NCBI GenBank assembly: GCA_964393275.1
Contig: CAYMTA010000009.1
Coordinates: forward strand, 53,544-117,543
Direction: 5' to 3'
Source of the DNA: an uncultured Geminicoccaceae bacterium
GTDB lineage: Bacteria > Pseudomonadota > Alphaproteobacteria > Geminicoccales > Geminicoccaceae
DNA length: 64,000 bases
Positions 33,440 through 53,471 of this stretch are shown here, piece by piece; position 1 is the first letter of the stretch; each line of letters opens with the position of its first letter. The notes under the pieces were generated by a model. The model was not told the DNA's origin. It saw only the letters and a list, made by a program, of their open reading frames with translations, and did no database searches. The translations under genes and the position numbers were made by a program.

Positions 33440-34228
33440 CTAGCCTTTCGGTGCGCAGGCCGAAGTCCGTCCGCCGGGCTGCATTCGCGCCGCGCCGTCA
33501 CCGCTGCAAAAACGTTGCAGCGCTGCGATATTGGCGACCTCCACCTGGTTGCCCTGCGCGCGCACGCCGATCGACTTGAGACGCGACAGGCATCGGGAGA
33601 AGGTCTCGGGTTGCATGCCGAGGGCCCCGGCGATGAGCTGCTTGTCGAGCGGCAGCTCGAAGGCGGTTGCTGCCGTGTCCTCCGGGCAGAGCTGCAGGAG
33701 GAAGCGGCCGAGGCGCTCGGTCGACGAGCTCGACGTGCGCTGCTCGATCTGCTCGACCAGCCGGCGCAACTGGCGCGACATCGACGCCAGGATGTTGAGC
33801 GCCAGGGCCGGGTCGGACAAGAGCCGGCGGCGGAACGACTGGGCGGTGACGACCAGCAGCCGCGCGTCGGCGATGACCGTCGCCGTGACCGGGAAGTCGG
33901 CGCAGTCGAACATCGCCGCCTCGGCGAAGGATTCGCCGCGGTTGATCAGGCTGATGACGCTCTGGTGACCGTTGGCGCTCACCCGGTGCAGCATCACGCA
34001 ACCGTCGAGCACGACGTAGAAGCGCGAGGCGGCCTCACCTTGGTAGAAGAGCACGGTGCGGCGCGAGGCGGCGACGACGCTGGCCTCGCCGATGATCTCG
34101 GCCCGCCTCGCCGGCGCCAGATCGGCGAACATCGGCAGCCGGGCGAGGCGCGCCGCATCTGTCGGGCCGAGCTCGCGCGACGGTGGCGAGGCGCCCTGAC
34201 CCGCGGCTGGTCGACACGCCTGCGCCAT
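33440..34228 (-). CDS. Crp/Fnr-family transcriptional regulator (NnrR/Dnr-type candidate)
   Basis: cNMP-binding-like domain plus a C-terminal HTH (LPLDKQLIAGALGMQPETFSRCLSRLK). No N-terminal Cys cluster. ATG preceded by GGGGGGAGG. Flanked by denitrification genes. Confidence 0.85.
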   Translation of the reverse strand: MAQACRPAAGQGASPPSRELGPTDAARLARLPMFADLAPARRAEIIGEASVVAASRRTVLFYQGEAASRFYVVLDGCVMLHRVSANGHQSVISLINRGESFAEAAMFDCADFPVTATVIADARLLVVTAQSFRRRLLSDPALALNILASMSRQLRRLVEQIEQRTSSSSTERLGRFLLQLCPEDTAATAFELPLDKQLIAGALGMQPETFSRCLSRLKSIGVRAQGNQVEVANIAALQRFCSGDGAARMQPGGRTSACAPKG

Positions 34229-34306
34229 GACCTCCCCCCATGTGCCGACCGGTCGTGCCCAGGGGGCGGACAAGAACCGGCGGTCCGCCGATGCTTGCCC
34301 ACATCC

Positions 34307-34320
34307 TTGACCACGGTCAA
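34307..34320. promoter_or_regulatory. FNR/NNR-type box TTGACCACGGTCAA, core of a 26-bp palindrome (34301-34326)
   Basis: Read directly: ACATCCTTGAC-CACG-GTCAAGGATGT. About 85 bp from both divergent start codons. Confidence 0.75.
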
Positions 34321-34397
34321 GGATGTGCGCCCGCTTTGCCCGCTTACTCGGGCTTCGCCATCGAGGCCCGTTGCGGCCGGGCATCCGGGAGGGGCGC

Positions 34398-34580
34398 ATG
34401 GAAATCGTTCTCTTCACCGCCGTCGCCGCGCTGCTCTATCTCGCGGCCGACAGGCTCCTCGTCCTCATCGAGCGGCGGCGGGGCGGCCCCTTGGCGAACC
34501 GCTCGGTTGTCTTCTTCCTCCTGCTTCTCGGGCTGGCGCTGCCGGCCTTCGCGTTGATCCGGTCGTTGCTGGGCACTTGA
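34398..34580 (+). CDS. Hypothetical small 2-TM membrane protein
   Basis: Internal ATG after GGGAGG. MEIVLFTAVAALLYLAADRLLVLIERRR...VVFFLLLLGLALPAFALI. Confidence 0.45.
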   Translation: MEIVLFTAVAALLYLAADRLLVLIERRRGGPLANRSVVFFLLLLGLALPAFALIRSLLGT

Positions 34581-34652: not shown

Positions 34653-35165
34653 ATGAAAACGCGTCAGTGGCGTGACAATTCGCTGCAATCGCCGAAGGGC
34701 GCTTCAAATCCGGTGCTGGCGCTGGCGCTCGTGGGCGGCCTCGCGGCCATGGCGCCGACCTCGCCGGCGCTTGCCGGCGAGGCCGTCGGCCCCCTGTTGC
34801 CGCCGAACGTGCGCGCCATGCTGCTCGAGGAGATGGCGGCGGTGCTCGGCGCCACCCAGATGATCCTCGACGCCCTGGTGCGCGGCGAGGACGCCACCGT
34901 GGCCGAGGAGGCACAGGCGATCCACGACAGCTTCATTCTCGAGCAGCAGATGACGGATGCGGATATGCAGGCCCTGCTGGCCGCCGCTCCGCCGGAATTT
35001 GTCGAGCTCGACGGTGCCTTCCACCAGCTGGCCGCCGACCTTGCCGAAGCCGCCCGCGCGGGCGAGCAGGCCCGCCAGCGCGGGCTGTTCGGGGAGATGG
35101 TCGAGGCCTGCGCCGTCTGCCACGCGCGCTTCGCGGCCAACCTCTTTCCGGGCTTCACCCAATGA
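34653..35165 (+). CDS. Class II c-type cytochrome (cytochrome c'-like)
   Basis: AGGGAGAG RBS and a signal peptide. Helical, Ala/Glu-rich body with a single CAVCH heme motif near the C-terminus. Confidence 0.6.
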   Translation: MKTRQWRDNSLQSPKGASNPVLALALVGGLAAMAPTSPALAGEAVGPLLPPNVRAMLLEEMAAVLGATQMILDALVRGEDATVAEEAQAIHDSFILEQQMTDADMQALLAAAPPEFVELDGAFHQLAADLAEAARAGEQARQRGLFGEMVEACAVCHARFAANLFPGFTQ

Positions 35166-35220: not shown

Positions 35221-35234
35221 TTGACTGCGGTCAA
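35221..35234. promoter_or_regulatory. FNR/NNR-type box TTGACTGCGGTCAA
   Basis: Perfect palindrome upstream of the heme-copper oxidase-like operon. Confidence 0.7.
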
Positions 35235-35386
35235 GGACAGCGCCGCCGGCGCGGCCCTAGCGTTGATCATCAGTCTATCCACGCACGTCGGCAGAGCAAC
35301 GCCTGCTGGCGGTCGTGACCGGAGAGGGGAGCTCGGTCTTGGCACACCAAGGGACGGAAGAGGATCAAGGGGGACGGCCGCACGTC

Positions 35387-35506
35387 ATGCAGCGGCTGCT
35401 CGACAACCCGTTCCTCCTGGTTTTCATCGGCGTCACCATGCCGACGGTTCTCTACCTGATCTGGGGGGTCATGGAGATCACCCAGATTCCCCTCTCTCCG
35501 TCCTAG
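35387..35506 (+). CDS. 39-aa single-TM peptide, ba3-oxidase subunit IIa-like by position and size
   Basis: MQRLLDNPFLLVFIGVTMPTVLYLIWGVMEITQIPLSPS, immediately upstream of the subunit II gene. Confidence 0.45.
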   Translation: MQRLLDNPFLLVFIGVTMPTVLYLIWGVMEITQIPLSPS

Positions 35507-35547: not shown

Positions 35548-36129
35548 ATGGCGCTCCTGCCGCCGAAGAACCGCCTCTGGTGGAACGAGCCGCTGCATCG
35601 CATGGAGATCGTCTGGATCGCCATCGCCTTTCTCTGGGGCGTCGCGATGTTCTGCACCATGATCTGGTGGCACATCTACGGCCATCAGAACCTCTCCAAC
35701 GAGTCCTACCGGATCCTGCCCGACGTCTATGCCGAGCGGGTGGACGCCATGATCGACGAATACGAGGTCGGCGAGGACGAGTTCGGCATGCCGATCGTCC
35801 GACCGCCGGTCGGCTCCGACGTCTATTTGCAGGCTCGCTTGTGGGACTGGTCGCCGATCCTCGAGCTGGTCGAGGGCGAGACCTACCGCCTGCACATCTC
35901 CTCGATCGACTGGCAGCACGGCTTCTCGCTGCAGCCGACCAACATCAACCTGCAGGTCCATCCCGGCTACGAGATGGTGGTGACGCTGACCCCCAACGCA
36001 TCGGGTGACTTCGGCATCGTCTGCAACGAATTCTGCGGCATCGGCCATCACCTGATGACCGGCCGGATCAAGGTCCTCGACCGAGAGGCGGCCAAGGCCG
36101 CCGGCATGCAACTGGCGGCGGGAGAGTAG
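35548..36129 (+). CDS. Heme-copper oxidase superfamily subunit II with CuA site (single TM, B-family-like)
   Basis: HGFSL...CNEFCGIGHHLM matches the CuA pattern H..C-x-E-x-C-G-x-x-H-x-x-M. One N-terminal TM helix. Confidence 0.85.
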   Translation: MALLPPKNRLWWNEPLHRMEIVWIAIAFLWGVAMFCTMIWWHIYGHQNLSNESYRILPDVYAERVDAMIDEYEVGEDEFGMPIVRPPVGSDVYLQARLWDWSPILELVEGETYRLHISSIDWQHGFSLQPTNINLQVHPGYEMVVTLTPNASGDFGIVCNEFCGIGHHLMTGRIKVLDREAAKAAGMQLAAGE

Positions 36130-36131
36130 TC

Positions 36132-37850
36132 ATGGCGAGCATTGCGATCCCGGGACGCCAGGTGGCGGAAGAGCTCTTTCGCACCTGCCCCGACACTGGC
36201 CTCAAGGTGCACGCCAAGGCCGAGACGCTGATCCGCGTCAACGTCCTGACCGCGGTCGCCTTTCTCGCCGTGGGCGGGCTTTTCGGCCTCATGGTGGCCC
36301 TCACCCGCTGGCCGGTGATCCACCTCCTGCCAGCCGAGTGGTTCTACCTGGTCCTGACCGCGCACGGTGCCGCCGTGCTGCTCTTCTGGATCATGTTCTT
36401 CGAGGTGGCGATCTTCTACTTCACCTCGGCCGTCGTTCTGAACTCCCGATTGGCGACGCCCATGATGGCCTGGGTCGCCTATTTCATGATGCTGATCGGC
36501 GCCATCATCGCCACCGTCGCGGTGCTGCAGGGCAACTCCACGGTGATGTTCACCTCCTACCCGCCCCTGATGGCGGCCCCGCACTTCTATCTCGGCCTGA
36601 TCCTCTTCGCGGTCGGCACGCTGATCACCTGCTTCATCTTCCTCGGCACGCTGGTCGTCGCCAAGGACGAGGGGACCTACGAGGGCTCGATCCCGCTCGC
36701 CGCCTTCGGCGGGCTCACCGGTGCGATCATCATGATCTTCACTCTGGCCTCGGGTGCCATCATCCTGGTCCCGACCTTCCTCTGGTCGCTCGGCATCATC
36801 GGCACCATCGATCCGCTGACCTACAAGCTCGTCTGGTGGGGCCTCGGCCATTCCTCGCAGCAGGTGAACGTCACCCTGCACGTGGTCGTCTGGTACACCA
36901 TCGCCGCCCTCCTCCTGGGGGCCCGGCCGCTCTCGGAGAAGGTCAGCCGGTTCGCCTTCCTGCTCTACATCTTCTTCCTGCAGCTCGCCTCGGCCCACCA
37001 CCTCCTGGTCGAGCCGGGCCTGAGCTCGTCCTGGAAGATCTTCAACACCAGCTACGCCATGTACCTGGCGGTCCTGGGCTCGATGATCCACGGCATGAGC
37101 GTGCCGGGCGCCGTCGAGGCGGCGCAGCGCCGGCTCGGCCACACCAAGGGCATCTTCGGCTGGCTCAGGGACGCGCCCTGGGGCAACCCGGCCTTCTCCG
37201 GCATGTTCCTCTCGCTCGTCATGTTCGGCTTCTTGGGCGGCATCAGCGGCGTCATCCTCGGCACCGAGCAGATTAACATCCTGATGCACAACACCCTCTA
37301 CGTGCCGGGTCACTTCCACGCCACCGTGGTCTGCGGCACCACGCTCGCCTTCATGGCCGTCACCTACCTCCTGATCCCGATCTTCTTCCAGCGTGACCTC
37401 GTCTTCCCCCGGATGGCGAAGTGGCAGCCTTATGTCTTCGGCGCCGGGGCCGCCGGCATCTCGCTCTTCATGATGGGCGCCGGCACGCTCGGCGTGGCCA
37501 GGCGGCATTGGGACATCACCTTCACGGACGCGCTCATCACCTTCGACTACCCGGCCACCGCCTTCCTCATGCTCGGCCTGAACGGCCTCTCGGCCCTGGT
37601 CGCGGCGACCGGCGGCGTGATGTACGTCCTCGTCGTCTTCGGCTCGGTTTTCTGGGGCAAGCGGCGGACCGCGGCGGATGCCTTGTCGAACCCCATCGCC
37701 CCGGGTGCCGAGGCCCTCAGGACCTACGGCAGCGAGGGAACGCTGAAGCTGCCGGGCACCCTCGTGCTGATCACGGTCTTCTTCATCGCCTTCGCCCTCT
37801 ACTACTTCATCAACTGGCGCTTCCTGGCGGGCATCTGGGGCATGAGCTGA
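36132..37850 (+). CDS. Heme-copper oxidase superfamily subunit I, B-family (ba3)-like, lacking the cross-link Tyr (NO-reductase-type candidate)
   Basis: Aligns by eye to Thermus ba3 CbaA (IDPL..WWGLGH.., SAHHLL, GIFGWLRDAPWGNPAF, YVPGHFHATV). All six His ligands are present, but GHPIVY is GHSSQQ. Confidence 0.8.
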   Translation: MASIAIPGRQVAEELFRTCPDTGLKVHAKAETLIRVNVLTAVAFLAVGGLFGLMVALTRWPVIHLLPAEWFYLVLTAHGAAVLLFWIMFFEVAIFYFTSAVVLNSRLATPMMAWVAYFMMLIGAIIATVAVLQGNSTVMFTSYPPLMAAPHFYLGLILFAVGTLITCFIFLGTLVVAKDEGTYEGSIPLAAFGGLTGAIIMIFTLASGAIILVPTFLWSLGIIGTIDPLTYKLVWWGLGHSSQQVNVTLHVVVWYTIAALLLGARPLSEKVSRFAFLLYIFFLQLASAHHLLVEPGLSSSWKIFNTSYAMYLAVLGSMIHGMSVPGAVEAAQRRLGHTKGIFGWLRDAPWGNPAFSGMFLSLVMFGFLGGISGVILGTEQINILMHNTLYVPGHFHATVVCGTTLAFMAVTYLLIPIFFQRDLVFPRMAKWQPYVFGAGAAGISLFMMGAGTLGVARRHWDITFTDALITFDYPATAFLMLGLNGLSALVAATGGVMYVLVVFGSVFWGKRRTAADALSNPIAPGAEALRTYGSEGTLKLPGTLVLITVFFIAFALYYFINWRFLAGIWGMS

Positions 37851-37856
37851 GCCGAC

Positions 37857-38732
37857 ATGCGTCCGACCCAGCCACTCGTCCAACACATCGTCTCGGTCTT
37901 CAAGCTCCGGATCGCCGTCGTCATCGCCTTGAGCGCCCTGGCGGGCGTGGCGGTGACGCCCGGAGCACCTCTCTCGCCGGCCCAGATCACAGTGCTGACC
38001 TTGGCGGTGCTGCTCTCCTCGGGTGCCGCGGGCGCCTTCAACCAGCTCTTCGAGCGCGATCTCGACGCCCGCATGATGCGCACCCGACGACGGCCATTCG
38101 CCAGCGGCGAATGGCGGGGCGGCCCCGCCTGGTGGGCGCTCATCGTCGCCATCCTGGCGCTCGGCGTGAGCATGGCGGCCGTTGTCCTCAACGTCACCAC
38201 CGCCGTGCTCCTCTTCCTCGGCGCCTTCACCTACGGCGTCGTCTACACGGTCTGGCTCAAGCGCCGCACGGTCTGGAACATCGTCATCGGCGGCCTCGCC
38301 GGCAGCTTCGCGGTCCTCGCCGGTGCCGCGGCCGTCGATCCGGCCATGAGCGCGGCACCCCTCGTCCTCGCCGTCGTGCTCTTCCTCTGGACGCCACCAC
38401 ATTTCTGGTCCCTGGCGCTCATGGCCAAGGACGACTACGCCGCCAACGGCGTGCCGATGCTGCCGGCGGTCAAGGGCGACGCCTTCACCGCCTGGGCGAT
38501 CCTCCTCCATGCCGTGGCCCTCGCGGTGCTCGCGGTGGTGCCCTTCTTCCTCGGCATGGGCTGGATCTACCTCCTGGCCGCGGTCGTCGGCGGCGCGTAT
38601 TTCGTCAAGACCAGCGTCGCCCTGGTGCTGCGGCCGAGCCGCGCCGCCGCCTTCGCCAACTTCAAGAGCTCGCTCCTGCAGCTTTCGCTCCTCCTGTTCG
38701 GCGCCATGGGCGATGCGGCGCTCCTGGGCTAG
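37857..38732 (+). CDS. ctaB: Protoheme IX farnesyltransferase (heme O synthase)
   Basis: UbiA-family: NQLFERDLDARMMRTRRRP..., 8-9 TM segments. Confidence 0.88.
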   Translation: MRPTQPLVQHIVSVFKLRIAVVIALSALAGVAVTPGAPLSPAQITVLTLAVLLSSGAAGAFNQLFERDLDARMMRTRRRPFASGEWRGGPAWWALIVAILALGVSMAAVVLNVTTAVLLFLGAFTYGVVYTVWLKRRTVWNIVIGGLAGSFAVLAGAAAVDPAMSAAPLVLAVVLFLWTPPHFWSLALMAKDDYAANGVPMLPAVKGDAFTAWAILLHAVALAVLAVVPFFLGMGWIYLLAAVVGGAYFVKTSVALVLRPSRAAAFANFKSSLLQLSLLLFGAMGDAALLG

Positions 38733-39549
38733 GGGGCGTCTGCTCGGCGCCCTCCTCTGCTTCTTGCCTGCGTTCCCGGCCGTCGCCGAGGATGCGCCCA
38801 ATCCCTTCGACGAGCGCGCCGCCCTTGCCTACAGCCAGGCCGCCATTGGCCGCGCCGTCTCCGACCACACCTTCCTGGACAGCGCCCGCCAGCCGGTGAA
38901 TCTCGCCGATTATCGCGGCAAGCCGCTGATCTTGAACCTTGTCTTCACCGCCTGCTCGACGACCTGCCCGATCATCGTCCAGTCGCTGCATCGCGGCGTG
39001 CGGATCGCCAACGGCGCCCTCGGTCCCGACGCCTTCTCCGTCGTCACCATCGGCTTCGACACCGATCGCGACACGCCCGAGCAGATGCGCGCCTTTGCCG
39101 CCGATCAGGGCGTGCGGATGCCGAACTGGACCTTCCTCAGCGCCGACAAGGCCACCATCGACGCCCTTTCGGCCGAGGTCGGCTTCATCTACTTCCCCTC
39201 GCCGCGCGGCTTCGACCACCTGACGACCACCACCATCCTCGACGCCGATGGCACGGTCTTCCGCCACGTCTATGGCGACCTCTTCGAGCCGCCAGCGGTG
39301 GTCGAGCCCTTGAAGGACCTCGTCTGGAGCCGCTTCAGCCCGATCACGGACCTCGAGGGCGTGTGGAATCGGGTCCGGCTGCTCTGCACCCTTTACGATC
39401 CGAAGAACGACCGCTACCGCTTCGATTACGGAATTTTCTTCGGCATCTTCGCCGGCATCCTTTGCCTCGGCGGCATCGCCGTTGTCCTGGTGCGCGCCTG
39501 GCTCACCACGCGGCGGCGACCGGACGTGGCCTTGCCGGCGCGGCGGTAG
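38713..39549 (+). CDS. SCO1/SenC-related thioredoxin-fold protein, atypical (CSTTC motif, C-terminal TM anchor)
   Basis: Internal ATG overlapping the ctaB end. Signal peptide, NLVFTACSTTCP, DTPEQMRAFA, FDHLTTTTILD. Has an extra C-terminal segment with a TM helix (FFGIFAGILCLGGIAVVLV). Confidence 0.65.
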   Translation: MRRSWARGRLLGALLCFLPAFPAVAEDAPNPFDERAALAYSQAAIGRAVSDHTFLDSARQPVNLADYRGKPLILNLVFTACSTTCPIIVQSLHRGVRIANGALGPDAFSVVTIGFDTDRDTPEQMRAFAADQGVRMPNWTFLSADKATIDALSAEVGFIYFPSPRGFDHLTTTTILDADGTVFRHVYGDLFEPPAVVEPLKDLVWSRFSPITDLEGVWNRVRLLCTLYDPKNDRYRFDYGIFFGIFAGILCLGGIAVVLVRAWLTTRRRPDVALPARR

Positions 39550-39560
39550 CGGGAATCGGC

Positions 39561-41150
39561 ATGGATCTTCTTCGTCGCACCTTGCGCGCGGGCTTCGCCC
39601 GCATCGAGGCGCTGCTCGACCGCGTGTTCCCGCCGGCCTGGCAGCCTCTCTACCACCTCGGCGCATTGTCCTTCTTCTGCCTCTGGATCGTCTTCGTCAG
39701 CGGCCTCTACGTCTACGCCTTCTTCGACACCGGCACGATCGACGCCTTCCAGTCGGTCGAGAGCATGAGCACCCGCTACTGGTGGCACGCCGGCGTCATG
39801 CGCAGCCTGCACCGCTACGCCTCGGCCGGCATGGTGCTCTTCATGTTCCTGCACCTGCTGCGCGAGTTCTCCCTCGACCGCTACCGGGGGTCCCGCTGGT
39901 TCACCTGGGTCACCGGCGTCATCATCATCTGGTTCGTCTACATCTCCGGCATCACCGGCTACTGGCTGGTCTGGGACCAGCTCGCCCAGTTCGTCGCGAT
40001 CCGGACATCCGAGCTGATCGACGCCATCGGCATTTTCGGCGAGCCCATCGCCCGCAACTTCCTGACGCCCGGCAGTCTCGACGACCGCTTCTTCTCGCTG
40101 ATGCTGTTCCTGCACATCGCCATCCCGCTGATCCTCCTCATGGTCATGTGGATCCATCTGCAGCGGGTGACCCGGCCCGAGATCAACCCGGCGCGCGGCC
40201 TCGCCATTCTCATGCTGGTCGCTTTCGTCGCCCTGGCGCTGGTCATGCCCGCGACCAGCCAGGCTCCGGCCGACCTCGGGCGCGTGCTGGGGAGGATCGG
40301 CCTCGACTGGTACTATCTCGGCACCTACCCCCTGGCCGACGTCATCGGTGCCCGGGGCCTCCTGGGTCTGCTCGGCGTCATCACGATCATCCTCGTCGCC
40401 CTGCCGCTCATGCCGCCCATGCGGCGCCCGCCGGCGGCCACCGTCAATCTCGAGTTCTGCAACGGCTGCGAGCGCTGCGTCCACGACTGCCCCTACGAAG
40501 CCGTGGTCCTGGTGCCACGCACCGATAACCTGCCCTTTCAGCACGAGGCCCGGGTCAACCCCTCGCTCTGCGTGAGCTGCGGCATCTGCACCGGCGCCTG
40601 CCCGACCGCGACACCGTTCCGCCAGCGCGGCCGGATGATCGCCGGCATCGAGCTGCCGCATCTGGCGCTCAAGGATCTGCGCGCCCTCACCGACAAGGCG
40701 GCCCAGGGCCTGACCGGCGACCGGCGGGTCATCGCCATCGGCTGCGATCACGGCGTCGACCTGAAAGGACTGGCCGAGCAGGGCGTCGGCATCGTCCGCC
40801 TCCCCTGCACCGGCATGCTGCCGCCGCCCTTCATCGACTACATCCTCAGCCGCGATCTCGCCGACGGCGTGGTGCTGACCGGCTGCGCCGAGGAAGCCTG
40901 CCAGAACCGCAACGGCATCGCCTGGACCGAGGCCCGGATCGAGGGCGAGCGCGACCCCCATCTGCGCAAGCGCGTGCCGCGTGAGCGAATCCTGCGCTTC
41001 TGGCCGGGCAGGACGGGTGCCACGGCCCTCGCTCGGGCAATCGAGGCCTTCCGCGCCACCCTGCCGGACCAGCCGAGCGCCAAGGCGGCGCCGCGCAAGG
41101 CCGCACCGGCGGCCGAGCCGGTCCAGACAGCGGCCTCCGGCAATGAGTAG
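39561..41150 (+). CDS. Fusion protein: di-heme cytochrome b (6 TM) + 2x[4Fe-4S] ferredoxin + MvhD/FlpD-like domain
   Basis: HRYASAGMVLFMFLH and FLHIAIPLILLMVMWIH (two H-x13-H pairs). CNGCERCVHDCP and CVSCGICTGACP. RLPCTGMLPPPFIDYILSRDLADGVVLTGCAEEACQNRNG resembles the MvhD motif. Confidence 0.75.
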   Translation: MDLLRRTLRAGFARIEALLDRVFPPAWQPLYHLGALSFFCLWIVFVSGLYVYAFFDTGTIDAFQSVESMSTRYWWHAGVMRSLHRYASAGMVLFMFLHLLREFSLDRYRGSRWFTWVTGVIIIWFVYISGITGYWLVWDQLAQFVAIRTSELIDAIGIFGEPIARNFLTPGSLDDRFFSLMLFLHIAIPLILLMVMWIHLQRVTRPEINPARGLAILMLVAFVALALVMPATSQAPADLGRVLGRIGLDWYYLGTYPLADVIGARGLLGLLGVITIILVALPLMPPMRRPPAATVNLEFCNGCERCVHDCPYEAVVLVPRTDNLPFQHEARVNPSLCVSCGICTGACPTATPFRQRGRMIAGIELPHLALKDLRALTDKAAQGLTGDRRVIAIGCDHGVDLKGLAEQGVGIVRLPCTGMLPPPFIDYILSRDLADGVVLTGCAEEACQNRNGIAWTEARIEGERDPHLRKRVPRERILRFWPGRTGATALARAIEAFRATLPDQPSAKAAPRKAAPAAEPVQTAASGNE

Positions 41151-41643
41151 GGGGCTGAAATGGCTCGGCCAGGGGCTCGTCCTGGCGCTGATCATGCTGG
41201 CGATCGGCTACCTCGCCAATCGGCCGGCCTACACCAACTTTCCCGAGGACCAGGCAATGATCCGCCTCAGCTTCAGCCATGGCGGCGGCCGGCCCGATTG
41301 CCGTCGGCGCACGCCGGAGGAGCTGGCGGCCCTGCCTCCCAACATGCGAGCGCCCATGGACTGCCCGCGCGGCCGCCTGCCGGTCACGGTCGAGCTCGAT
41401 CTCGACGGCTCCCCGCTCTATCATGCCCTTTTGCCGCCTGGCGGGCTCCAGGGTGACGGGCCGTCCCGCGTGCACCGGGGCTTCGCCGTATCACCGGGCA
41501 CGCACACGATCACCGCCCGACTGCGCGACAGTGACCGGACGGAGGGCTTCGACTACACCAAGGAGGTCACCCTCGACCTCGCCCCCCGGCAGAACCTGGT
41601 GATCGATTTCAAGACCGACGCCGGCGGCTTCATCGTTCATTGA
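41143..41643 (+). CDS. Hypothetical single-TM protein
   Basis: The ATG overlaps the upstream stop (ATGAGTAG). N-terminal TM helix WLGQGLVLALIMLAIGYL. No family recognised. Confidence 0.5.
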   Translation: MSRGLKWLGQGLVLALIMLAIGYLANRPAYTNFPEDQAMIRLSFSHGGGRPDCRRRTPEELAALPPNMRAPMDCPRGRLPVTVELDLDGSPLYHALLPPGGLQGDGPSRVHRGFAVSPGTHTITARLRDSDRTEGFDYTKEVTLDLAPRQNLVIDFKTDAGGFIVH

Positions 41644-41670: not shown

Positions 41671-42324
41671 ATGCGCCAGCATACCGGATCACCCAGGCTG
41701 CTGACCGGCGGCGGGCGCGGCCTCCTGCTGCCGCTTCTCGTCGTCGTCTTCATCGGCGCCACCGGCTGGCTCGCCTCGACGATCCTGCCCTGGCGCGACT
41801 TCTTCTCCGAAGCTCCGGCCGTGCCGGTGATCGAGACCGAAAGCCTCCTCGCCCTCGTCGACCATCATGGCCAGAAGCTTGCCCCGGCCGCGCTCCAGAA
41901 CCCCGTCAACCTGGTTTTTTTCGGCTATACCCACTGTCCCGACGTCTGCCCCCTCGAGCTCGCCACCATGGCGGCGGCCCTCGACCGGCTGGGTGACGCG
42001 GCTGGCCGGGTCGGCGCCTTCTTCGTCAGCGTCGATCCGGAGCGCGACACGCCGGAACAGCTCGCCAGCTATGTCGCCCTCTTTCACCCGGGGATCACCG
42101 GGCTCACCGGCACGCCGGAGGAGGTCGCCGCCACGGCTGGCGCCTTTCATGCCTATTATGCTAGGGTCGATCAGGAGGACGGTTCCTACACGATGGACCA
42201 CTTCGCCCGCACGATGGTCCTCGACCGGGACGGGCATCTGATCGCAGCCATCCCCTTCGACCAGTCGCCCGAGACCCTGGAGAAGGCCATCCGGCCGCTT
42301 CTCGAAAGCGAGGAGGCTGGCTGA
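41671..42324 (+). CDS. SCO1/SenC copper chaperone
   Basis: FGYTHCPDVCP, DPERDTPEQL, DHFARTMVLD. Confidence 0.88.
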   Translation: MRQHTGSPRLLTGGGRGLLLPLLVVVFIGATGWLASTILPWRDFFSEAPAVPVIETESLLALVDHHGQKLAPAALQNPVNLVFFGYTHCPDVCPLELATMAAALDRLGDAAGRVGAFFVSVDPERDTPEQLASYVALFHPGITGLTGTPEEVAATAGAFHAYYARVDQEDGSYTMDHFARTMVLDRDGHLIAAIPFDQSPETLEKAIRPLLESEEAG

Positions 42325-42343: not shown

Positions 42344-42787
42344 ATGCCGCTCTTGCCCTGGTCCGAGAGGTTCAAGCTCGGCATTCCCTCGGTCGATTTC
42401 GAGCATAAGGAGCTGGTCGACCTGATCAACGAGCTCTACGACAGCCTCGGCCACACGCCCACGAAGGACGCGGTCATGGCTTTCCTCGAGGAGATCAACG
42501 CCAAGATCCACGCGCATTTCGCGCTCGAGGAGAAGGTCATGCGCGGCATGCGCTATGACGAGCTCGATGACCACAAGGACGAGCACGAGGATCTCCTGGA
42601 CGGCATCCGCGATATCATGGAGAGGACCGAGGCCGGCGGCTTCGTCGACCTCGAGGCCGAGCTCGGGCCGCGGCTCAAGGCCTGGTTCGGCAATCATTTC
42701 GCTACCAAGGATGCCCGCCTGCATCACTTCATGGAGGAGCAGGGCATCGACGAGGAAAGCTTCGCCCGCCAGCATCCCGATGCCTGA
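42344..42787 (+). CDS. Bacteriohemerythrin-like protein
   Basis: W-x3-F-x-LGIPSVDFEHKELV..., HFALEE, H-x3-H/E pattern. Confidence 0.85.
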   Translation: MPLLPWSERFKLGIPSVDFEHKELVDLINELYDSLGHTPTKDAVMAFLEEINAKIHAHFALEEKVMRGMRYDELDDHKDEHEDLLDGIRDIMERTEAGGFVDLEAELGPRLKAWFGNHFATKDARLHHFMEEQGIDEESFARQHPDA

Positions 42788-42792
42788 GCGCC

Positions 42793-42806
42793 TTGACTTG
42801 GATCAA
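42793..42806. promoter_or_regulatory. FNR/NNR-type box TTGACTTGGATCAA
   Basis: Read directly. Lies 6 nt after the hemerythrin stop and about 70 bp upstream of the TrpD-like gene. Confidence 0.6.
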
Positions 42807-42871: not shown

Positions 42872-43903
42872 ATGAGCCTTCATACGGCCACGCATGAGCG
42901 CGGCCCGGTCCTGGCCGATGCCCGGGAGCACCCGTTCGCCGCCACCCTTCGCGTCGTCGCCAAGGGCGAGAAGCTCGGCCGCAGCCTGACCATGGAGGAG
43001 GCGCACGAGGCAATGCGCCTCGTCCTCGAGGGTCGGGTCGAGCAGGTCCAGCTCGGCGCCTTCCTCGCCGTGCTGCGCTATCGCAAGGAGACCGGGGCCG
43101 AGCTTGCCGGCTTCGCGCTGGCCGCCCGCGACTGCCTGACCTGGGATGCCCTGCCGGCCGCGGCGCTCGACTGGCCGTCCTATGCCGACCGGCACCGCCA
43201 GCTTCCGTATTTTGTCCTCTCGGCCCTGCTGGTGGCCGGCGCCGGCGTTCGCGTCCTGATGCACGGTGTCGAGGGCGAGGGACCGGCCGGCACGCGCGCC
43301 ATGCTGCGCGCCCTGGACGTGCCCATGGCCACGAGCTCGGACGACGCCGAGCGGCACATGGCGGAACGCGCGTTCGCCTACCTGCCGCTCGAAGCCATCT
43401 GCCCGGCGCTCGACCGGCTGCTCGAGCTCCGCCCGCTCCTGGGATTGCGCTCGCCGGCCAACACCTACGCCCGCGAGTTGAACCCGGCCGCCGCACCCTG
43501 CCAGATCCAGGGCGTCTTCCACCCCAACTACGCCGACCTGCATGCCCATGCCGCGAGCCGTCTCGGCCAGCCCCGGGCCGCCATCTTCAAGGGCGGTGGC
43601 GGCGAAGGTCAGATCAACCCGCTGAAGCCCATCGCCCTGACCCTGGTCGAGGATGGCCAGGTGCGCCGCGAGACCTGGCCCGCCCTCCTCGAAGCGGACG
43701 ACGCCGGCTGGCGGGACGAGCCCCTGGAGCTGTCGCGCGTCCTCGAGCTCTGGCGTGGGACGCGCACCGCCCCCGGACCCGAGGCCGCGATCATCGGCAC
43801 GACCGCCATAGCCCTGCACCTCACCGGCAGCGCTCCCACACCCGAGAGTGCCCTGGCCGCTGCCAGCGATCTTTGGCAGAGCCGCGACCGCTCGCGCTAC
43901 TAG
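42872..43903 (+). CDS. Glycosyltransferase family 3 / anthranilate phosphoribosyltransferase-like (TrpD2-type) protein
   Basis: N-terminal helical bundle pattern LTMEEAHEAMRLVLEGRVEQVQLGAFLAVLRYRKETGAELAGF. Confidence 0.65.
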   Translation: MSLHTATHERGPVLADAREHPFAATLRVVAKGEKLGRSLTMEEAHEAMRLVLEGRVEQVQLGAFLAVLRYRKETGAELAGFALAARDCLTWDALPAAALDWPSYADRHRQLPYFVLSALLVAGAGVRVLMHGVEGEGPAGTRAMLRALDVPMATSSDDAERHMAERAFAYLPLEAICPALDRLLELRPLLGLRSPANTYARELNPAAAPCQIQGVFHPNYADLHAHAASRLGQPRAAIFKGGGGEGQINPLKPIALTLVEDGQVRRETWPALLEADDAGWRDEPLELSRVLELWRGTRTAPGPEAAIIGTTAIALHLTGSAPTPESALAAASDLWQSRDRSRY

Positions 43904-44631
43904 AGCGTGGCCGCCTCGACGATCAGCGGCAGCAGCGCCGGATCGGGGCCGATCGGGCCAAAATAGACACCCGCACGGCCCGTCTCGGCCAGGAGCCTCG
44001 CCACATCGCTCGCCCCGTGCTGGCCGGCGTCGGTGAGGAACCCCACGGCAGCGATGAAGGGCGCCTCGAACCGTGCGGCGGCTTCGGCCACGGCGGGCGC
44101 CTCGTCGAGAAAGGCCACGCCCACCTCGGCGAAGAGCCCCAGATCGAGAATCGCCGCGGCATGGCGTTTTGCCGTCAAGGCCGAATCCGGATGCCGCGTG
44201 GTGCCGTGGCCGACCAGCAGCAGTGCCGTCTCGGCCGGCCCCTGGCCGTGGGCGGCGAGGCCCTTGAGCGCTCGTGCCACCAGGAGATCGGCCAGCCCCT
44301 CATGGGCACCCAAGGCAGGTGCCAACCGGGCGCCGGGCCGAGACGCCCTGAGCCGCTCCTCCAGCACCCGCAGCGTGTAGCCTTCGGCCATCATGAAGGG
44401 CAGCACGGTCAAGGGACCGGGCGGCATGCCGGCGAGCACCGTCTCGAGCCGCGGCGTGCCGAAGAGCGCGCAGGCCTCGACCTTGGCGAAAAGCCCCTGC
44501 CGCCGCAGCACGCCCGCATGCCGGGCCGCCGCCCCGGCCACGCCACGCGCCCCGTGGGCGCAGAGCACCAGCGCCGGCCCGATTGCCGGGGCCCGCTCAG
44601 TCGCCGGCAGTGGCGAGACGATTGTGGACAT
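43900..44631 (-). CDS. CbiX/SirB-type sirohydrochlorin chelatase
   Basis: Two-lobed, about 240 aa. LVLCAHGARG and LLLVGHGTTRH motifs. Terminal gene of the nir/heme d1 string. Confidence 0.7.
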   Translation of the reverse strand: MSTIVSPLPATERAPAIGPALVLCAHGARGVAGAAARHAGVLRRQGLFAKVEACALFGTPRLETVLAGMPPGPLTVLPFMMAEGYTLRVLEERLRASRPGARLAPALGAHEGLADLLVARALKGLAAHGQGPAETALLLVGHGTTRHPDSALTAKRHAAAILDLGLFAEVGVAFLDEAPAVAEAAARFEAPFIAAVGFLTDAGQHGASDVARLLAETGRAGVYFGPIGPDPALLPLIVEAATL

Positions 44632-46135
44632 TGTACTTGCCTACCGGGTTGCGCATCGGGATGCGCTTGACCTCTTCCAGCGTATGGGCGTCGTAGACCA
44701 CCACCGCACCATCGTCCGCCCACACACTGACCAGCGCGTAGCGGCCGTCCTTGGTGAACTCGACATGGCCGGCGGTGGTGCCGGGACTCGGCCGGATGGT
44801 CCTCACGAGCTCGAGCGTGCGCGTGTCCAGCACCTGCACCGCATCGGCGTCGGGGCCGAAGAAGACATCGACCCAGGCATAGGGTGTCGCCGGATGGGCG
44901 CGGAGAAAAAAGCCGGGACCAAGGGTCTCGATCTCCTTGACCACCTCGAGCTTCTCGACGTCGATGACGCTGACCGCCGCGTCGCGCAGATGCGGTGTTG
45001 CCATGACCTGCCGTCCCTGCCACTCGAAAGCCGCGGCCGAGCCCAGATGCGGCATCCCCGGCAGTGGCAGCTCGGCGATCTCGCGGCCGACATCGAGCTG
45101 GATGGCCACCACATGGTCGCCGCTGCGGGCCGACCCCAGAAGCACGCGATAGTCGGGGGTGAAGAAGAAATCGTCGACCGGCTCGTCCAGGAGAATGCGG
45201 CGAACCGGGAAGGGGTCGGAGGAATCCACGACCTCCTCCATCCCGCTCTCGTTGCTGTGGGCGAGCCCGCTGACCTTGACGGCCCTCGGGCCGATCGGGA
45301 TCTCCCAGATCTCGGCCACGTCCTTCAAGGCGACGATGAAGCTCTGGCGCGGCGGGGCGGCGTAGACAGCACTCACCCTGGAGCCGGTGCCCCGGATGTC
45401 GGCGACCGGGATCACGGCGAGCGGCCGGAGGTCCTCCGCATCGAGCACGACGAGGCTGTTGGGCAGGTAGTTGCCGACGAGGACGAAGCGGCCATCGTGC
45501 GAAAGGGCCAGATTGCGCGTGTTGATCCCCGCCCTGACCTTGGCGAGCTTCTGCAGCCCCCACATGTCCACCTTCTCGATCCAGCCGTCGCGCGAGGCGA
45601 GGTAGACGAAGCGGCCCTCCGGGCTGAACTTGGGGCCGCCATGCAGCGCGAAGGCGGTGGGCAGGCGACGCAAGGGCTCGAAGCTGTCGCCATCCAGGAT
45701 GGTGATGTGGTGATCGCCGGTCTCGACCACGACGAAGAGGTTCATCGGATCGCCGTCGAAAACCGGCGCCTCGGCCGGAACGGCGCCGGTCATCTCGTGC
45801 GACGCCGAGATCTCCGCCATGCCCCAGGTCGGCACTGTCGCAGGGGGCGTGTAGACGAGGGCCACCAGGGCCTCGATCTCCGCCTCGTCCAGCACGTGCT
45901 CGAAGGCTGGCATCTGCGTCTGCCCCCGGCCGCTTCGAATGACCTCCGCCGCCGCCTTGGGCTTCAGCCGGCCGAGATTGTCCGGCAGGAGGGCCGGCCC
46001 CGTGCCGCCGAGCCGTGCCTCGCCATGGCATTCCGCGCAATTCTCCGCATAGAGCGCGTCGCCGTCCGGCGCGGCCTGGGCCATGCCCGCCCAGCCGAGG
46101 GCCAGAGCCAGGAGCGCTGCCCTATTCCGCGGCAT
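44597..46135 (-). CDS. nirN: NirN (cytochrome c + d1-type beta-propeller; dihydro-heme d1 dehydrogenase)
   Basis: Internal ATG followed by a signal peptide. CAECH heme c motif followed by a cd1-type propeller. Positioned after nirJ. Confidence 0.85.
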   Translation of the reverse strand: MPRNRAALLALALGWAGMAQAAPDGDALYAENCAECHGEARLGGTGPALLPDNLGRLKPKAAAEVIRSGRGQTQMPAFEHVLDEAEIEALVALVYTPPATVPTWGMAEISASHEMTGAVPAEAPVFDGDPMNLFVVVETGDHHITILDGDSFEPLRRLPTAFALHGGPKFSPEGRFVYLASRDGWIEKVDMWGLQKLAKVRAGINTRNLALSHDGRFVLVGNYLPNSLVVLDAEDLRPLAVIPVADIRGTGSRVSAVYAAPPRQSFIVALKDVAEIWEIPIGPRAVKVSGLAHSNESGMEEVVDSSDPFPVRRILLDEPVDDFFFTPDYRVLLGSARSGDHVVAIQLDVGREIAELPLPGMPHLGSAAAFEWQGRQVMATPHLRDAAVSVIDVEKLEVVKEIETLGPGFFLRAHPATPYAWVDVFFGPDADAVQVLDTRTLELVRTIRPSPGTTAGHVEFTKDGRYALVSVWADDGAVVVYDAHTLEEVKRIPMRNPVGKYNVHNRLATAGD

Positions 46136-47309
46136 GGGCGGGCTCACGGCTCGCGGCTCGACCGGCTGCGAGCCCGATCTCGGCGTCGGTGAGATAGCAG
46201 CCGGGATCGGCCGCCCAGGGATCGTCCAGCGTGCGGGCCGCCCGGACCCGGGTGTTGCCGTTGCAGATCTGAAGGTAGTGGCAGGCACCGCAGCGCCCGG
46301 TGACCGGCCGGGGCCGCTCCTTGAGCCCGGCGAAGACGGGATCGGTGGACGTGTCGGTCCAGATCTCGCTGAACGGCCGCTCCCTGACATTGCCGAGCTT
46401 GTGGTGCCACCAGTAGGTGTCCGGATGGACGAAGCCTCGATTGTCGATATTGGCGACATTCACGCCGGACGCATTGCCGCCCCAGCGCTCGAGCAGGGCC
46501 TGGATATGGGCGGCCTTGGCCGGGAAGTGGCGGCGCACCCAGTGCAGAAGGAAGACGCCGTCGGCGTCGTTGTTGCCGGTGACGAACTCGGTGTTCCTGC
46601 CCTCGTTCAGGTGGCGAAGGCAGGTCTCGAAGATCAGCTCGAGAGCATCCCGGGTCATGACGTCCTGCGCGTCCTCGCCTCTGACCTTGAATCCGCGCCC
46701 GCCGTAATTCAGGTGCGAGAGGTAGAACTTGTCGATGCCGCGCTGGTCGATGAGATCGAGGATGGTCGAGAGCTCGGCCGCGTTGTCGCGGGTCAGCGTG
46801 AAGCGGAGCCCGACCTTGATGCCGATCGCCTGGCAGTGCTCGACGCCACGCATCGCGGCCTTGAAGGCGCCGGGCTCGCCCCGGAGATGGTCATGGGTCG
46901 GCTCGGTGCCGTCGAGGCTGATGCCGACATAGTTGTAATCGAGCTCGGCGATCCGGCCGATATTCGTCTCGTCGATCTGCGTGCCGTTGGTCGACAGCGC
47001 CACGTAGAAGCCCAGCCGCTTGGCCTCGGCCGAGATCTCGAAGATGTCCGGGCGGAGCAAAGGCTCGCCGCCGGAGAGAATCAGCGCCGGCACGCGAAAG
47101 CGGCGCAGATCCTCCATCACCGTCACGACCTCCTCGGTCGAGAGCTCACCCGAATAGGCGACATTGGCCGAGCCCGAGTAGCAGAAGCGGCAACGCAGGT
47201 TGCAGCGGCGCGTCAGGTTCCAGATGACCACGGGCCCAGGCGGTTGGCGCGCCGGGCCGATGCGGCTCGGGTTGACGACCTCGCGCATGAAATTGGTGAT
47301 CCGGAACAT
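46122..47309 (-). CDS. nirJ: Radical SAM heme d1 biosynthesis protein NirJ
   Basis: NLTRRCNLRCRFC (CxxxCxxC) with a SPASM-like C-terminus. GGGAGA RBS. Confidence 0.9.
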   Translation of the reverse strand: MFRITNFMREVVNPSRIGPARQPPGPVVIWNLTRRCNLRCRFCYSGSANVAYSGELSTEEVVTVMEDLRRFRVPALILSGGEPLLRPDIFEISAEAKRLGFYVALSTNGTQIDETNIGRIAELDYNYVGISLDGTEPTHDHLRGEPGAFKAAMRGVEHCQAIGIKVGLRFTLTRDNAAELSTILDLIDQRGIDKFYLSHLNYGGRGFKVRGEDAQDVMTRDALELIFETCLRHLNEGRNTEFVTGNNDADGVFLLHWVRRHFPAKAAHIQALLERWGGNASGVNVANIDNRGFVHPDTYWWHHKLGNVRERPFSEIWTDTSTDPVFAGLKERPRPVTGRCGACHYLQICNGNTRVRAARTLDDPWAADPGCYLTDAEIGLAAGRAASREPAHAAE

Positions 47310-47335
47310 GGGCGTCTCCCGTTGCTTCTCGACTG

Positions 47336-47836
47336 CTACCGGGCGAGCCGGAGCCCGGTCTTCTTGAGGATGCGGCGGCTGTAGAGGATCGTCCCGCCGT
47401 GACAGGCGGAGCCCAGGCGGCTCCTGATCTGCCGTACCTTGGCCTCGACCGCGGGGCGTGTCTTGGCGTGGACCATGGCGAAGAGATTGTAGGGCCAAAG
47501 CGGCGGATGGCGAGGCCGGCGGTAGCAGTGGGTGACGAACTCGAAAGCGCCGATGATCGGCCCGAGCTCGGCCACCATGTCGTCGTCGACATCGAAGACC
47601 GCCATGCCGTTGGCCCGATAGCCCAGCGCATAGTGGTTCGGCACGGCGCCGATGCGACGGATGGCACCGCGCGCCAGCATGGCCTCGAGCGTGGCGATGA
47701 CCGTTGCCTCGTCGGTGCTGAGCTCGGCGGCGACCGCGGCATAAGGTTCGGCGACTAGCGGCAGCCCGGTGCCGATCGCCTTCACGAGCCGGCGCTCGAG
47801 CTCGTCAGCGGGGCCGGTCCCTCCCCCGGCCTTCAT
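47336..47836 (-). CDS. nirH: Siroheme decarboxylase subunit NirH
   Basis: AsnC-like NirDLGH family (WPYNLFAMVH). ATGA overlap with nirG. Confidence 0.85.
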   Translation of the reverse strand: MKAGGGTGPADELERRLVKAIGTGLPLVAEPYAAVAAELSTDEATVIATLEAMLARGAIRRIGAVPNHYALGYRANGMAVFDVDDDMVAELGPIIGAFEFVTHCYRRPRHPPLWPYNLFAMVHAKTRPAVEAKVRQIRSRLGSACHGGTILYSRRILKKTGLRLAR

Positions 47837-48276
47837 GGCTGGAGCCTCAGGCCGATGAAATATTCCTCGAGCTTCGGCATCGAAAGAACCTCGATGCCGG
47901 TCTCCGCCGCGATCTCGTCCAGCACCGCCAGGGCCCGCTCCGGCGTCTCGGCCGCCACCACGAACCACATGTTCAAGAGATGCTCGCGCTCGTAGTTGTG
48001 GGCCACCTCGACATGGGCGTTGACCAGCTCGGTCACCCGGTCGAACGCGTCCTCCGGCACTGCCATGGCCGCCAGGATGTAGGTGCCGCCCATGGCCTCG
48101 ACATTGAAGAGGGGACCGAAGCGGCTGAGCACGCCGGTCTCCAGGAGCCGCCCCAGGCGACGGATCAGCTCGCCCTCGTCGAGCCCCAGTGCCCGGGCGG
48201 CCTCTTCGTAGGGACGCGGGCTCAGGGGAAAACCGCCCTGCAGCCCGGCCACAATGCGTCGGTCCGTGGCATCCAT
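47833..48276 (-). CDS. nirG: Siroheme decarboxylase subunit NirG
   Basis: NirDLGH family (VAHNYEREHLLNMWFVV). Confidence 0.85.
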   Translation of the reverse strand: MDATDRRIVAGLQGGFPLSPRPYEEAARALGLDEGELIRRLGRLLETGVLSRFGPLFNVEAMGGTYILAAMAVPEDAFDRVTELVNAHVEVAHNYEREHLLNMWFVVAAETPERALAVLDEIAAETGIEVLSMPKLEEYFIGLRLQP

Positions 48277-53457: not shown

Positions 53458-53471
53458 TTGACCTGCGTCAA
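53458..53471. promoter_or_regulatory. FNR/NNR-type box TTGACCTGCGTCAA in the nirS-nirI divergent region
   Basis: Perfect palindrome, about 100 bp from the nirS start and about 40 bp from the nirI start. Confidence 0.75.

Follow-up and report, generated by a model that had tools for sequence, protein, structure and literature searches.

A bc1-type cytochrome b–ferredoxin–MvhD fusion protein encoded in an eNOR-type nitric oxide reductase module of an uncultured Geminicoccaceae bacterium

The window analysed here, a stretch of 64,000 nucleotides from contig CAYMTA010000009.1 of an uncultured Geminicoccaceae bacterium, carries a compact operon in which the genes of a heme-copper oxidase (HCO)-like enzyme are followed by those of a heme O synthase, a copper chaperone of the SCO type, a composite membrane protein (hereafter the fusion), a small periplasmic partner, and a bacteriohemerythrin (Table 1). 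The fusion gene is real and, judged from its sequence, encodes a membrane protein in which a bc1-type di-heme cytochrome b is joined to three cytoplasmic Fe-S sites—that is, a predicted electron conduit across the membrane, built of known modules in a new combination. The surrounding operon, described as "oxidase-like" in an earlier note on this DNA, appears to be an eNOR-type nitric oxide (NO) reductase module lying in a denitrification island. By published estimates, eNOR-type enzymes account for a large proportion of the NO reductases in the environment, and thereby of nitrous oxide sources (PMC11214002). A bc1-type cytochrome b combined with an Hdr/Mvh-type Fe-S module, a beta-sandwich partner, and an anchored SCO protein is a testable candidate for the electron supply of eNOR or for a link to its assembly, and the fusion is the best available lead on how these enzymes receive electrons or are assembled.

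The open reading frame of the fusion spans 39363-41150 on the plus strand as listed from a GTG codon at 39363; the ATG codon at 39561, which fits the N-termini of homologues in an alignment, sits 11 nt past the stop codon of the upstream SCO gene. Residue conservation was followed in a close alignment of 40 homologues (54–90% identity) and in a MAFFT alignment of 113 distant cluster representatives of at least 480 aa, over which all residue percentages given below were computed. The AlphaFold2 (AF2) model (predicted local distance difference test, pLDDT, 79; predicted template modelling score, pTM, 0.71) comprises six long membrane helices followed by alpha/beta domains. Because the number of helices is even and no signal peptide is present, the Fe-S domains are expected on the side of the N-terminus, in the cytoplasm, where the earlier note had also placed the C-terminal part. 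Domain searches of Pfam, NCBIfam, and PDB sequences, a check of the kind proposed in that note, returned cytochrome b, ferredoxin, and MvhD similarity. In a Foldseek search with the model, no single PDB chain spanned the entire architecture.

The assignment of the N-terminal half to the bc1/b6f type of cytochrome b rests on several concordant comparisons. Pfam Cytochrome_B (PF00033) matches aa 21-201 (E 8e-23; 81.7 bits against a cut-off of 27.2), and a search of PDB sequences matches this half to cytochrome b6 (E 4e-21) with the four heme His residues aligned. H84/H98 and H185/H199 form two H-x13-H pairs, as had been read from the sequence beforehand, and all four residues are invariant in the close alignment; in the distant set they are 100% conserved, as are G133 and D139, while D249 reaches 97%. 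A cd-helix motif, GxxGYWxxWDxLAQ, occupies aa 130-143. Every fold match found by Foldseek was of the bc1/b6f type, and 280–330 columns aligned with full-length bc1 cytochrome b, through helix F, which identifies the two additional helices of the fusion as probable equivalents of helices E and F. The earlier note had thus counted the six predicted helices correctly, but the last two are not generic membrane helices: the loop between them reads LDWYYLGTYPL, with a PEWY-like LDWYY at aa 248-252 that includes the conserved D249. Set beside the bovine cytochrome b sequence (PEWYFLFAYAIL), LDWYY reads as a PEWY-like Qo-loop motif. On the P side, the residues conserved across the 113 representatives are two Asp, a Gly, a Trp, and a Tyr of a Qo-like pocket. 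PF00032 was not matched in Pfam, and helices G and H are missing from the AF2 model. Likewise, no Rieske protein or cytochrome c1/f was found among the operon genes between 35.3 and 43.9 kb (Pfam, NCBIfam) or in the related loci listed. A six-helix module of this bc1 type is predicted to accommodate two b hemes, one above the other across the membrane.

The cytoplasmic part begins with a dicluster ferredoxin domain, for which Fer4/Fer4_7 matches in Pfam cover aa ~293-350, with Fer4_7 and Fer4_9 above their cut-offs. Its two CxxCxxCxxxCP motifs (C300/303/306/310 and C337/340/343/347) are the [4Fe-4S] motifs already noticed earlier; all eight Cys residues are invariant in the 40 close homologues and 95–96% conserved in the distant set. 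The following domain matches Pfam FlpD (PF02662) over aa 406-501 with an E-value of 5e-9 and a score of 36.6 bits (cut-off 22.3) and, in a search of PDB sequences, its segment cited in the earlier note matches the core of MvhD (9sw2_D; E 6.6e-4), with three of its four Cys residues aligned to Cys residues of MvhD. C395, C416, C442, and C447 are invariant in the close alignment and conserved at 93, 92, 89, and 74%, respectively, in the distant one. The proposal of an MvhD core lacking the N-terminal CCxxC cluster is therefore borne out with respect to the core, whereas the loss is incomplete, with one Cys of that cluster, C395, remaining. In NCBIfam, aa 291-501 as a whole match the C-terminal ferredoxin–MvhD part of HdrA2. 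No Hdr or hydrogenase genes were found in the operon or in related loci (Pfam; locus gene lists).

The genes of the operon are separated by gaps of 2–41 nt or overlap, and a search of the window found no terminator-like site between them. The placement of the fusion inside an oxidase-like operon accordingly stands, with the HCO now identifiable as being of the eNOR type. The best PDB match of subunit I is ba3 oxidase (E 5e-44), and in the alignment with it the HH and HxH motifs are retained, together with the three metal-binding and the two heme-binding His residues, while Y237 aligns to a Gln (GHPIVY versus GHSSQQ). This Gln is found in 66/66 subunit I orthologues, and the CxExCxxxHxxM motif of the CuA site in 61/62 subunit II orthologues. 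Gln at the site of the cross-link Tyr is diagnostic of eNOR, with Asn and Asp marking sNOR and gNOR, respectively (PMC8756737, Table A4), and NO reduction by an eNOR has so far been demonstrated only with the Rhodothermus marinus enzyme (PMC11214002). The Gln at the Tyr position, together with the intact CuA motif, is the basis on which the operon HCO is assigned to the eNOR type. A relation to the norSY-senC-orf1 cluster of ammonia oxidisers, which encodes sNOR, was rejected, since the active-site residue is Gln and not Asn.

The SCO protein encoded directly upstream of the fusion has a signal peptide, a CSTTC motif plus His, and a C-terminal transmembrane (TM) helix, and it keeps the CxxxC motif and the His in 80/80 loci. 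This divergent, C-terminally anchored SCO is universal, unlike the second, canonical SCO encoded after the partner gene, which is present in the closest related locus (L002) and missing at that position in most others. In nearly all related loci, the hemerythrin gene is the last one of the conserved module; beside an NO reductase, its product may bind O2 or NO, donate iron, or act as a redox partner of the MvhD domain. At the other end of the operon stands a small single-TM protein, which recalls subunit IIa of ba3 oxidases. Genes related to heme d1 and nitrite reductase lie directly downstream, which places the eNOR module in what appears to be a denitrification island.

Table 1. Coordinates of the fusion gene, its domains, and neighbouring features in the window.
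Feature	Position (nt)	Strand	Description
Crp/FNR-family regulator gene	33440-34417	n/a	Upstream of operon; domain match
Cytochrome c' family gene	34653-35165	+	PF01322, C-terminal CAVCH; between Crp/FNR regulator and eNOR operon
FNR/Dnr/NnrR-type box	35221-35234	+	TTGACTGCGGTCAA; upstream of operon; consensus match only, predicted
Small single-TM protein	35315-35506 (likely ATG 35384, 40 aa)	+	Open reading frame, TM helix; conserved in synteny
eNOR subunit II, cupredoxin	35548-36129	+	CuA motif intact, CNEFCGIGHHLM; COX2/CoxB/NosZ C-terminal matches
eNOR subunit I, B-family HCO	36132-37850	+	COX1 Pfam; Gln replacing cross-link Tyr (GHSSQQ)
Heme O synthase CtaB/CyoE	37857-38732	+	TIGR01473, 256.9 bits, above cut-off
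Membrane-anchored SCO1/SenC-type copper chaperone	38713-39549	+	278 aa; Pfam SCO1-SenC; directly upstream of fusion
Whole fusion protein	39561-41150	+	529 aa: cytochrome b, 2x[4Fe-4S] ferredoxin, MvhD-like domain
Cytochrome b module, helices A-F	39561-40430	+	aa 1-290; PF00033
Putative heme ligands	H84 39810-39812; H98 39852-39854; H185 40113-40115; H199 40155-40157	+	Conservation, b6 alignment
Dicluster ferredoxin domain	40431-40640	+	aa 291-360; motifs CNGCERCVHDCP and CVSCGICTGACP; Fer4 family
MvhD/FlpD-like domain	40713-41075	+	aa ~385-505; C395, C416, C442, C447, putative [2Fe-2S] site
Partner gene	41143-41643	+	166 aa; N-terminal TM helix and periplasmic beta-sandwich; no Pfam family
Second, canonical SCO1/SenC	41671-42324	+	Pfam E 8e-45; follows 166-aa gene
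Bacteriohemerythrin, cytoplasmic	42344-42787	+	NF033749, 100 bits, above cut-off
Anthranilate phosphoribosyltransferase-like ("glycosyl transferase family 3") gene	42872-43903	+	NF006564, 333 bits; after hemerythrin
Heme d1/nitrite reductase-related genes	43900-48843	-	CbiX-like; cytochrome cd1-type with N-terminal cytochrome c domain; radical SAM; NirDL-like siroheme decarboxylase

The gene for the 166-aa partner starts within the fusion gene, overlapping its stop codon by 8 nt, and a homologue of the protein was found in 86/90 loci. Its AF2 model (pLDDT 92) shows a TM helix and a beta-sandwich. Most of the distant relatives of the fusion, 640–760 aa in length, carry an additional C-terminus consisting of a seventh TM helix and a domain clearly homologous to the 166-aa protein, and the beta-sandwich is fused to cytochrome b–ferredoxin–MvhD in 57–63 of 150 cluster representatives. 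Fused in most lineages and overlapping in translation here, the two proteins thus appear to be physically coupled, and the 166-aa gene is assigned on this basis to the same unit as the fusion. The partner family gave no Pfam match even at E<=1 (40 members), FixG families included, and Foldseek returned only generic immunoglobulin (Ig)-like, CARDB, or CBM20 folds (E >= 7e-3); with no Pfam match and only generic folds, its identification as a cupredoxin, Rieske, or FixG_C protein is unsupported. A copper site composed of H46, C53, M68, and C74 was considered and rejected, the His not being kept in distant fused homologues and both Cys residues being missing from P0194.

The family is large. A word-indexed search gave 4031 matches, the best 120 of which are all full-length with an identical Pfam architecture; an exhaustive search of 1.84 billion cluster representatives gave 492 clusters at E<1e-30; and a collection with one genome per species contained at least 594 relatives among the 600 pattern matches listed. 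Thus, the fusion is unusual, as the earlier note had called it, in combining known modules as no solved or characterised protein does, but it is far from unique. The carriers among the matches listed are mainly Alphaproteobacteria (Hyphomicrobiales, Rhodospirillales, Kiloniellales, Geminicoccaceae, Bradyrhizobium, and Rhodobacterales, including Litoreibacter arenae DSM 19593), with some Gammaproteobacteria. One 92%-identical copy lies on a 1.7-kb contig binned as Rhodocyclaceae (JAGRGD010000031.1); as the other close relatives are all alphaproteobacterial, this binning is probably an error.

Synteny was examined by tblastn of the operon proteins of the window against 80 retrieved loci; the 166-aa gene and the cytochrome c' gene were looked for in 90 loci. 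The gene order small TM protein, subunit II, subunit I, ctaB, SCO, fusion, 166-aa protein, and hemerythrin recurs, where the contig is long enough, in about 80 loci of different species. Relatives with only 30–36% identity still adjoin SCO, UbiA, and COX1 genes, and an SCO gene adjoins the fusion relative also in three distant loci (L083, L085, and L090). Conservation alongside a B-family HCO lacking the Tyr, a relationship that the earlier note had asked to be analysed, was found in essentially every locus examined. Taken together, the genomic association of the fusion with eNOR and the anchored SCO appears to be obligatory, and the fusion a near-universal member of proteobacterial eNOR modules. 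A compact example with all eight module genes is found on a 165-kb plasmid of Defluviimonas sp. (NZ_CP156080.1, 13852-20598; locus L087). There, the eNOR is misannotated in RefSeq, with subunit I entered as "cbb3-type cytochrome c oxidase subunit I" and subunit II as "hypothetical protein." The fusion itself is currently called "cytochrome b N-terminal domain-containing protein" (RefSeq, same plasmid) or "hydrogenase iron-sulfur subunit." For both the fusion and eNOR subunit I, the present analysis yields annotation rules.

Variant architectures were counted by domain-wise phmmer on the 150 cluster representatives, and the variant domains were confirmed by Pfam. Cytochrome b–ferredoxin–MvhD–beta-sandwich proteins account for 57 of the 150 (plus 6 with a divergent MvhD), cytochrome b–ferredoxin–MvhD proteins for 48, and fragments for about 30. 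Cytochrome b is joined to Fer2-FAD-NAD domains in two representatives (including P0181) and to flavodoxin-FAD-NAD domains in one (P0189). Single representatives are an SCO protein fused to cytochrome b–ferredoxin (P0256), a relative with a C-terminal periplasmic cytochrome c (P0277), and cytochrome b fused to a COX1-like protein (P0283). In locus L090, an SCO gene is followed by that of the Fer2-FAD-NAD variant P0181 and then by a 172-aa gene, so that P0181 occupies the slot of the fusion. In locus L089, a protein of the ferredoxin–MvhD type adjoins eNOR subunit I and ctaB, while the flavodoxin-FAD-NAD variant P0189 has PCuAC, CtaG, and SCO1 immediately before it and NnrS after it; the hemerythrin gene of this locus lies several genes off.

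COX1-like proteins of 480–500 aa also occur in some eNOR loci (L089:4020-5516; L082:5323-6759, minus strand; aa ~320-761 of P0283). They keep the heme His residues of helix II and of the HxH motif, and lack the HH metal ligands (TPVAYLAY versus SAHHLL). The COX1-like part of P0283 corresponds to the "eNOR scaffold protein" (IMG 2878407321) of a preprint on Ferrigenium; the window contains no copy of such a COX1-like gene. The value of P0283 as evidence of direct contact with eNOR subunit I is weakened, since the fused part is another COX1-like protein, without CuB/FeB ligands.

Literature searches yielded no description of a cytochrome b–MvhD fusion apart from that preprint, and the eNOR papers do not mention the gene. 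The May-2026 preprint on Ferrigenium straubiae reports an eNOR operon encoding eNOR II and I, heme o synthase, Sco1, two "bc1 chain C-like" proteins, and a scaffold protein, one of the "bc1 chain C-like" proteins consisting of cytochrome b, [Fe-S], FAD, and NADH parts; the cytochrome b genes are called "rather unusual," and a supercomplex coupling NO reduction to NAD+ reduction is speculated upon (bioRxiv 10.64898/2026.01.22.701106). In the proteome, both eNOR subunits scored 31.6, the flavin variant 26.2, Sco1 24.7, and the Fe-S variant 23.9; transcripts of the Fe-S variant were about 100-fold below those of eNOR II (bioRxiv 10.64898/2026.01.22.701106). By its description, the "Cytbc1CCC-like protein 2" of this organism resembles the fusion in its cytochrome b plus [Fe-S] domains and in its type of operon; it was detected in the proteome, and it is noted in the preprint rather than characterised. 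The statement of the earlier note that no characterised protein has this architecture therefore still holds, but for a family that is large, already annotated automatically, and noted in a 2026 preprint.

Several characterised systems share parts of this design. With bc1/b6f cytochrome b (PF00033), the fusion has in common the fold of helices A-F, two predicted bis-His heme sites at the bc1-type H-x13-H distance, the "GYxLxWDQ" motif of the cd helix, and what reads as a PEWY-like ef loop; it differs in the absence of helices G and H and of a Rieske or c1/f partner encoded nearby, in having (L/I)DW(F/Y)Y in place of PEWY, and in a C-terminus that runs on into cytoplasmic Fe-S domains. The succession of a dicluster ferredoxin and an FlpD/MvhD domain, with the core RxxC(S/T)G...DGV..(T/G)GC....C, is shared with the C-terminus of HdrA2 and with MvhD of Mvh-Hdr (PDB 5odc, 9sw2). 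In the fusion, however, a single Cys of CCxxC is kept, there is no HdrA flavoprotein or hydrogenase context, and the module is joined to a membrane cytochrome in a denitrifying proteobacterium.

CcoG, a cupric reductase for cbb3 assembly whose electron donor is unknown, combines TM helices with two [4Fe-4S] clusters and ends in an Ig-like domain in the periplasm (PMC7558416). Like the fusion system, CcoG/FixG thus pairs two cytoplasmic [4Fe-4S] clusters with a periplasmic Ig-like domain and is encoded with HCO and copper-handling genes; CcoG is, however, heme-free and reduces Cu(II) on the cytoplasmic side, no sequence relationship is detectable, and no FixG Pfam family was matched by the fusion, so that the analogy is purely functional. 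A two-heme transmembrane wire linked to cytoplasmic Fe-S centres and the quinone pool is the common logic of QmoC, HdrED, DsrMK, and NarI-NarH, but their cytochromes b are of the NarI/HdrE type (PF02665) and serve other terminal chemistry, whereas the fusion is of the bc1 type and gave no match to Nitrate_red_gam (PF02665) in Pfam. Finally, NOX, Fre, STEAP, and Dcytb proteins and the PepSY_TM protein CrpH, a heme reductase supporting HCO function (PMC13038864), also combine a cytoplasmic reductant, two membrane hemes, and an extracytoplasmic metal or acceptor, and rare relatives of the fusion likewise carry NAD(P)H-FAD modules. The heme-binding folds are nevertheless unrelated, and the protein of the window has an Fe-S chain where the flavin domain would be. 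By these comparisons, the fusion does not appear to be a subunit of a bc1/b6f complex (no Rieske, no c1), a component of Mvh/Hdr, a CcoG, or a NarI-type fusion.

The reading favoured here, tentatively and with somewhat less than even confidence, is that the fusion is a dedicated accessory redox subunit of the eNOR module, a transmembrane conduit that would serve the maturation or maintenance of the eNOR copper centre, a role narrowly preferred to bulk respiratory supply. Electrons would enter from the cytoplasmic side via the Fe-S chain, pass from heme bH to heme bL, and exit on the periplasmic side, in or close to the conserved Qo-like pocket (D139, D249). The reducing power would be spent on Cu(II) or on the SCO/CuA site, the SCO domain and the beta-sandwich acting as partners in the periplasm, in a manner akin to CcoG, CrpH, and the cupric reductases Fre and STEAP of eukaryotes. 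Modules of the FNR-like and CPR-like kinds nearly always take electrons from NAD(P)H and feed them in; the replacement of ferredoxin–MvhD by NAD(P)H-flavin modules in the same slot suggests that the conduit most likely runs from the cytoplasm to the periplasm. A role in maturation is then narrowly favoured by the invariable adjacency of SCO, the SCO fusion P0256, the PCuAC-CtaG-SCO context of the NADPH variant, an abundance as low as that of Sco1, and the precedents of CcoG and CrpH. If the fusion is a periplasm-directed cupric or SCO reductase, it would join CcoG and CrpH as a third kind of metal reductase in the service of heme-copper enzymes.

A number of observations weigh against a role in copper-centre maturation. 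Five redox centres are a heavy investment for a chaperone-type task, and the usual reductants of SCO and CuA thiols are thioredoxin-like proteins rather than hemes. No conserved His, Cys, or Met metal site was found on the P side of the family; the proteins thus show no sign of a copper site of their own, and the pocket bears a closer resemblance to a quinone site. In the beta-sandwich, both Cys residues are lost together in P0194, as would fit a disulfide. The Ferrigenium expression data come from another genus, with two paralogous variants, and the periplasmic cytochrome c domain of P0277 and the HCO-like fusion P0283 fit respiratory electron transfer. Indeed, a Qo-like pocket without metal ligands and a relative fused to cytochrome c are left unexplained by maturation and fit a respiratory donor.

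The idea of a respiratory donor, put forward in the earlier note, stays a serious rival, although it is judged rather unlikely to be correct. In this case, the fusion would be an electron-input subunit that docks on eNOR and feeds CuA or the enzyme, bypassing bc1 and cytochrome c, with electrons drawn either from quinol at the Qo-like pocket or, by way of Fe-S, bH, and bL, from a reductant in the cytoplasm. The strict co-occurrence with the eNOR structural genes is consistent with such a role, as are the 97–100% conservation of the Qo hallmarks (WDQ of the cd helix, D-W-Y-Y of the ef loop), the retention of helices E-F, and the existence of P0277 and P0283. The Ferrigenium protein was, moreover, detected in a denitrifying proteome, and a supercomplex was proposed in the preprint. 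However, the module encodes no Rieske protein or other high-potential acceptor, heme bL is buried, and CuA is normally served by soluble carriers. The abundance of the Ferrigenium protein is far below that of eNOR I/II and resembles that of Sco1; the gene is placed among assembly genes (ctaB, SCO) and not beside the structural genes; and the HCO-like part of P0283 lacks the CuB ligands and is not eNOR subunit I.

Bifurcation of quinol electrons, or reverse electron flow, is an improbable alternative in which one electron would pass from a Rieske-less Qo-like site to the eNOR side, which is of very high potential, and the other via bL, bH, and Fe-S to ferredoxin, or to NAD(P)+ in the flavin-fused variants. 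The joining of a Qo-like pocket to a low-potential-type ferredoxin–MvhD module from the bifurcating Hdr/Mvh family points in this direction, as do the paralogous variants with FAD/NAD(P) domains; the Ferrigenium preprint suggests a quinol:NAD+ oxidoreductase tied to NO reduction, and such a reaction would be attractive for lithoautotrophs. Yet FNR-like and CPR-like modules almost always oxidise NAD(P)H as inputs, the family is common in ordinary heterotrophic Alphaproteobacteria without need for reverse electron flow, the membrane potential works against electrons moving from the P side to the N side, the abundance in Ferrigenium is low, and no high-potential first acceptor has been identified. 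A more specific form of this idea, and a very improbable one, is that a Rieske-less Qo-type quinol oxidiser is mechanically coupled to eNOR, so that one electron would be pulled to CuA by the very high potential of NO reduction, perhaps via SCO or the beta-sandwich, and the second driven inward to the ferredoxin–MvhD or flavin/NAD(P) modules. If true, quinone-based bifurcation would yield reduced ferredoxin or NAD(P)H from denitrification; with either a respiratory or a bifurcating donor, the energetics of denitrification would have to be counted differently.

A redox loop resembling NarI/NarH, in which quinol would be oxidised on the P side and both electrons passed inward via the b hemes and Fe-S to the cytoplasmic bacteriohemerythrin, which would reduce or scavenge O2 or NO or have its di-iron site kept reduced, is also very unlikely: it agrees with the hemerythrin gene that follows in nearly all loci, with the combination of a P-side Q site, two hemes, and cytoplasmic Fe-S that is the geometry of NarGHI and related loops, and with the lack of a Rieske protein, which it does not require, but it leaves the SCO link, the periplasmic beta-sandwich, and the NAD(P)H-reductase variants unexplained, the hemerythrin gene is several genes off in L089 and absent beside some distant homologues, and no hemerythrin is known as a terminal reductase.

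With respect to the flanking region, the cytochrome c' gene upstream of the operon was considered as the electron donor of the module and rejected, because a counterpart was found in 0/90 related loci; it accordingly lies outside the module. The pattern TTGAC-N4-(G/A)TCAA, to which the predicted FNR/Dnr/NnrR-type box conforms, fits four sites in the window (34307-34320, 35221-35234, 42793-42806, and 53458-53471), the third of which falls in the gap that follows the hemerythrin gene. For the looser pattern TTG-N8-CAA, the window shows no enrichment over chance, with 6 sites against an expected 4.2. The gene after that of the hemerythrin, encoding the anthranilate phosphoribosyltransferase-like protein, recurs downstream in a few related loci only (L002, L005, L012, L018, and L028).

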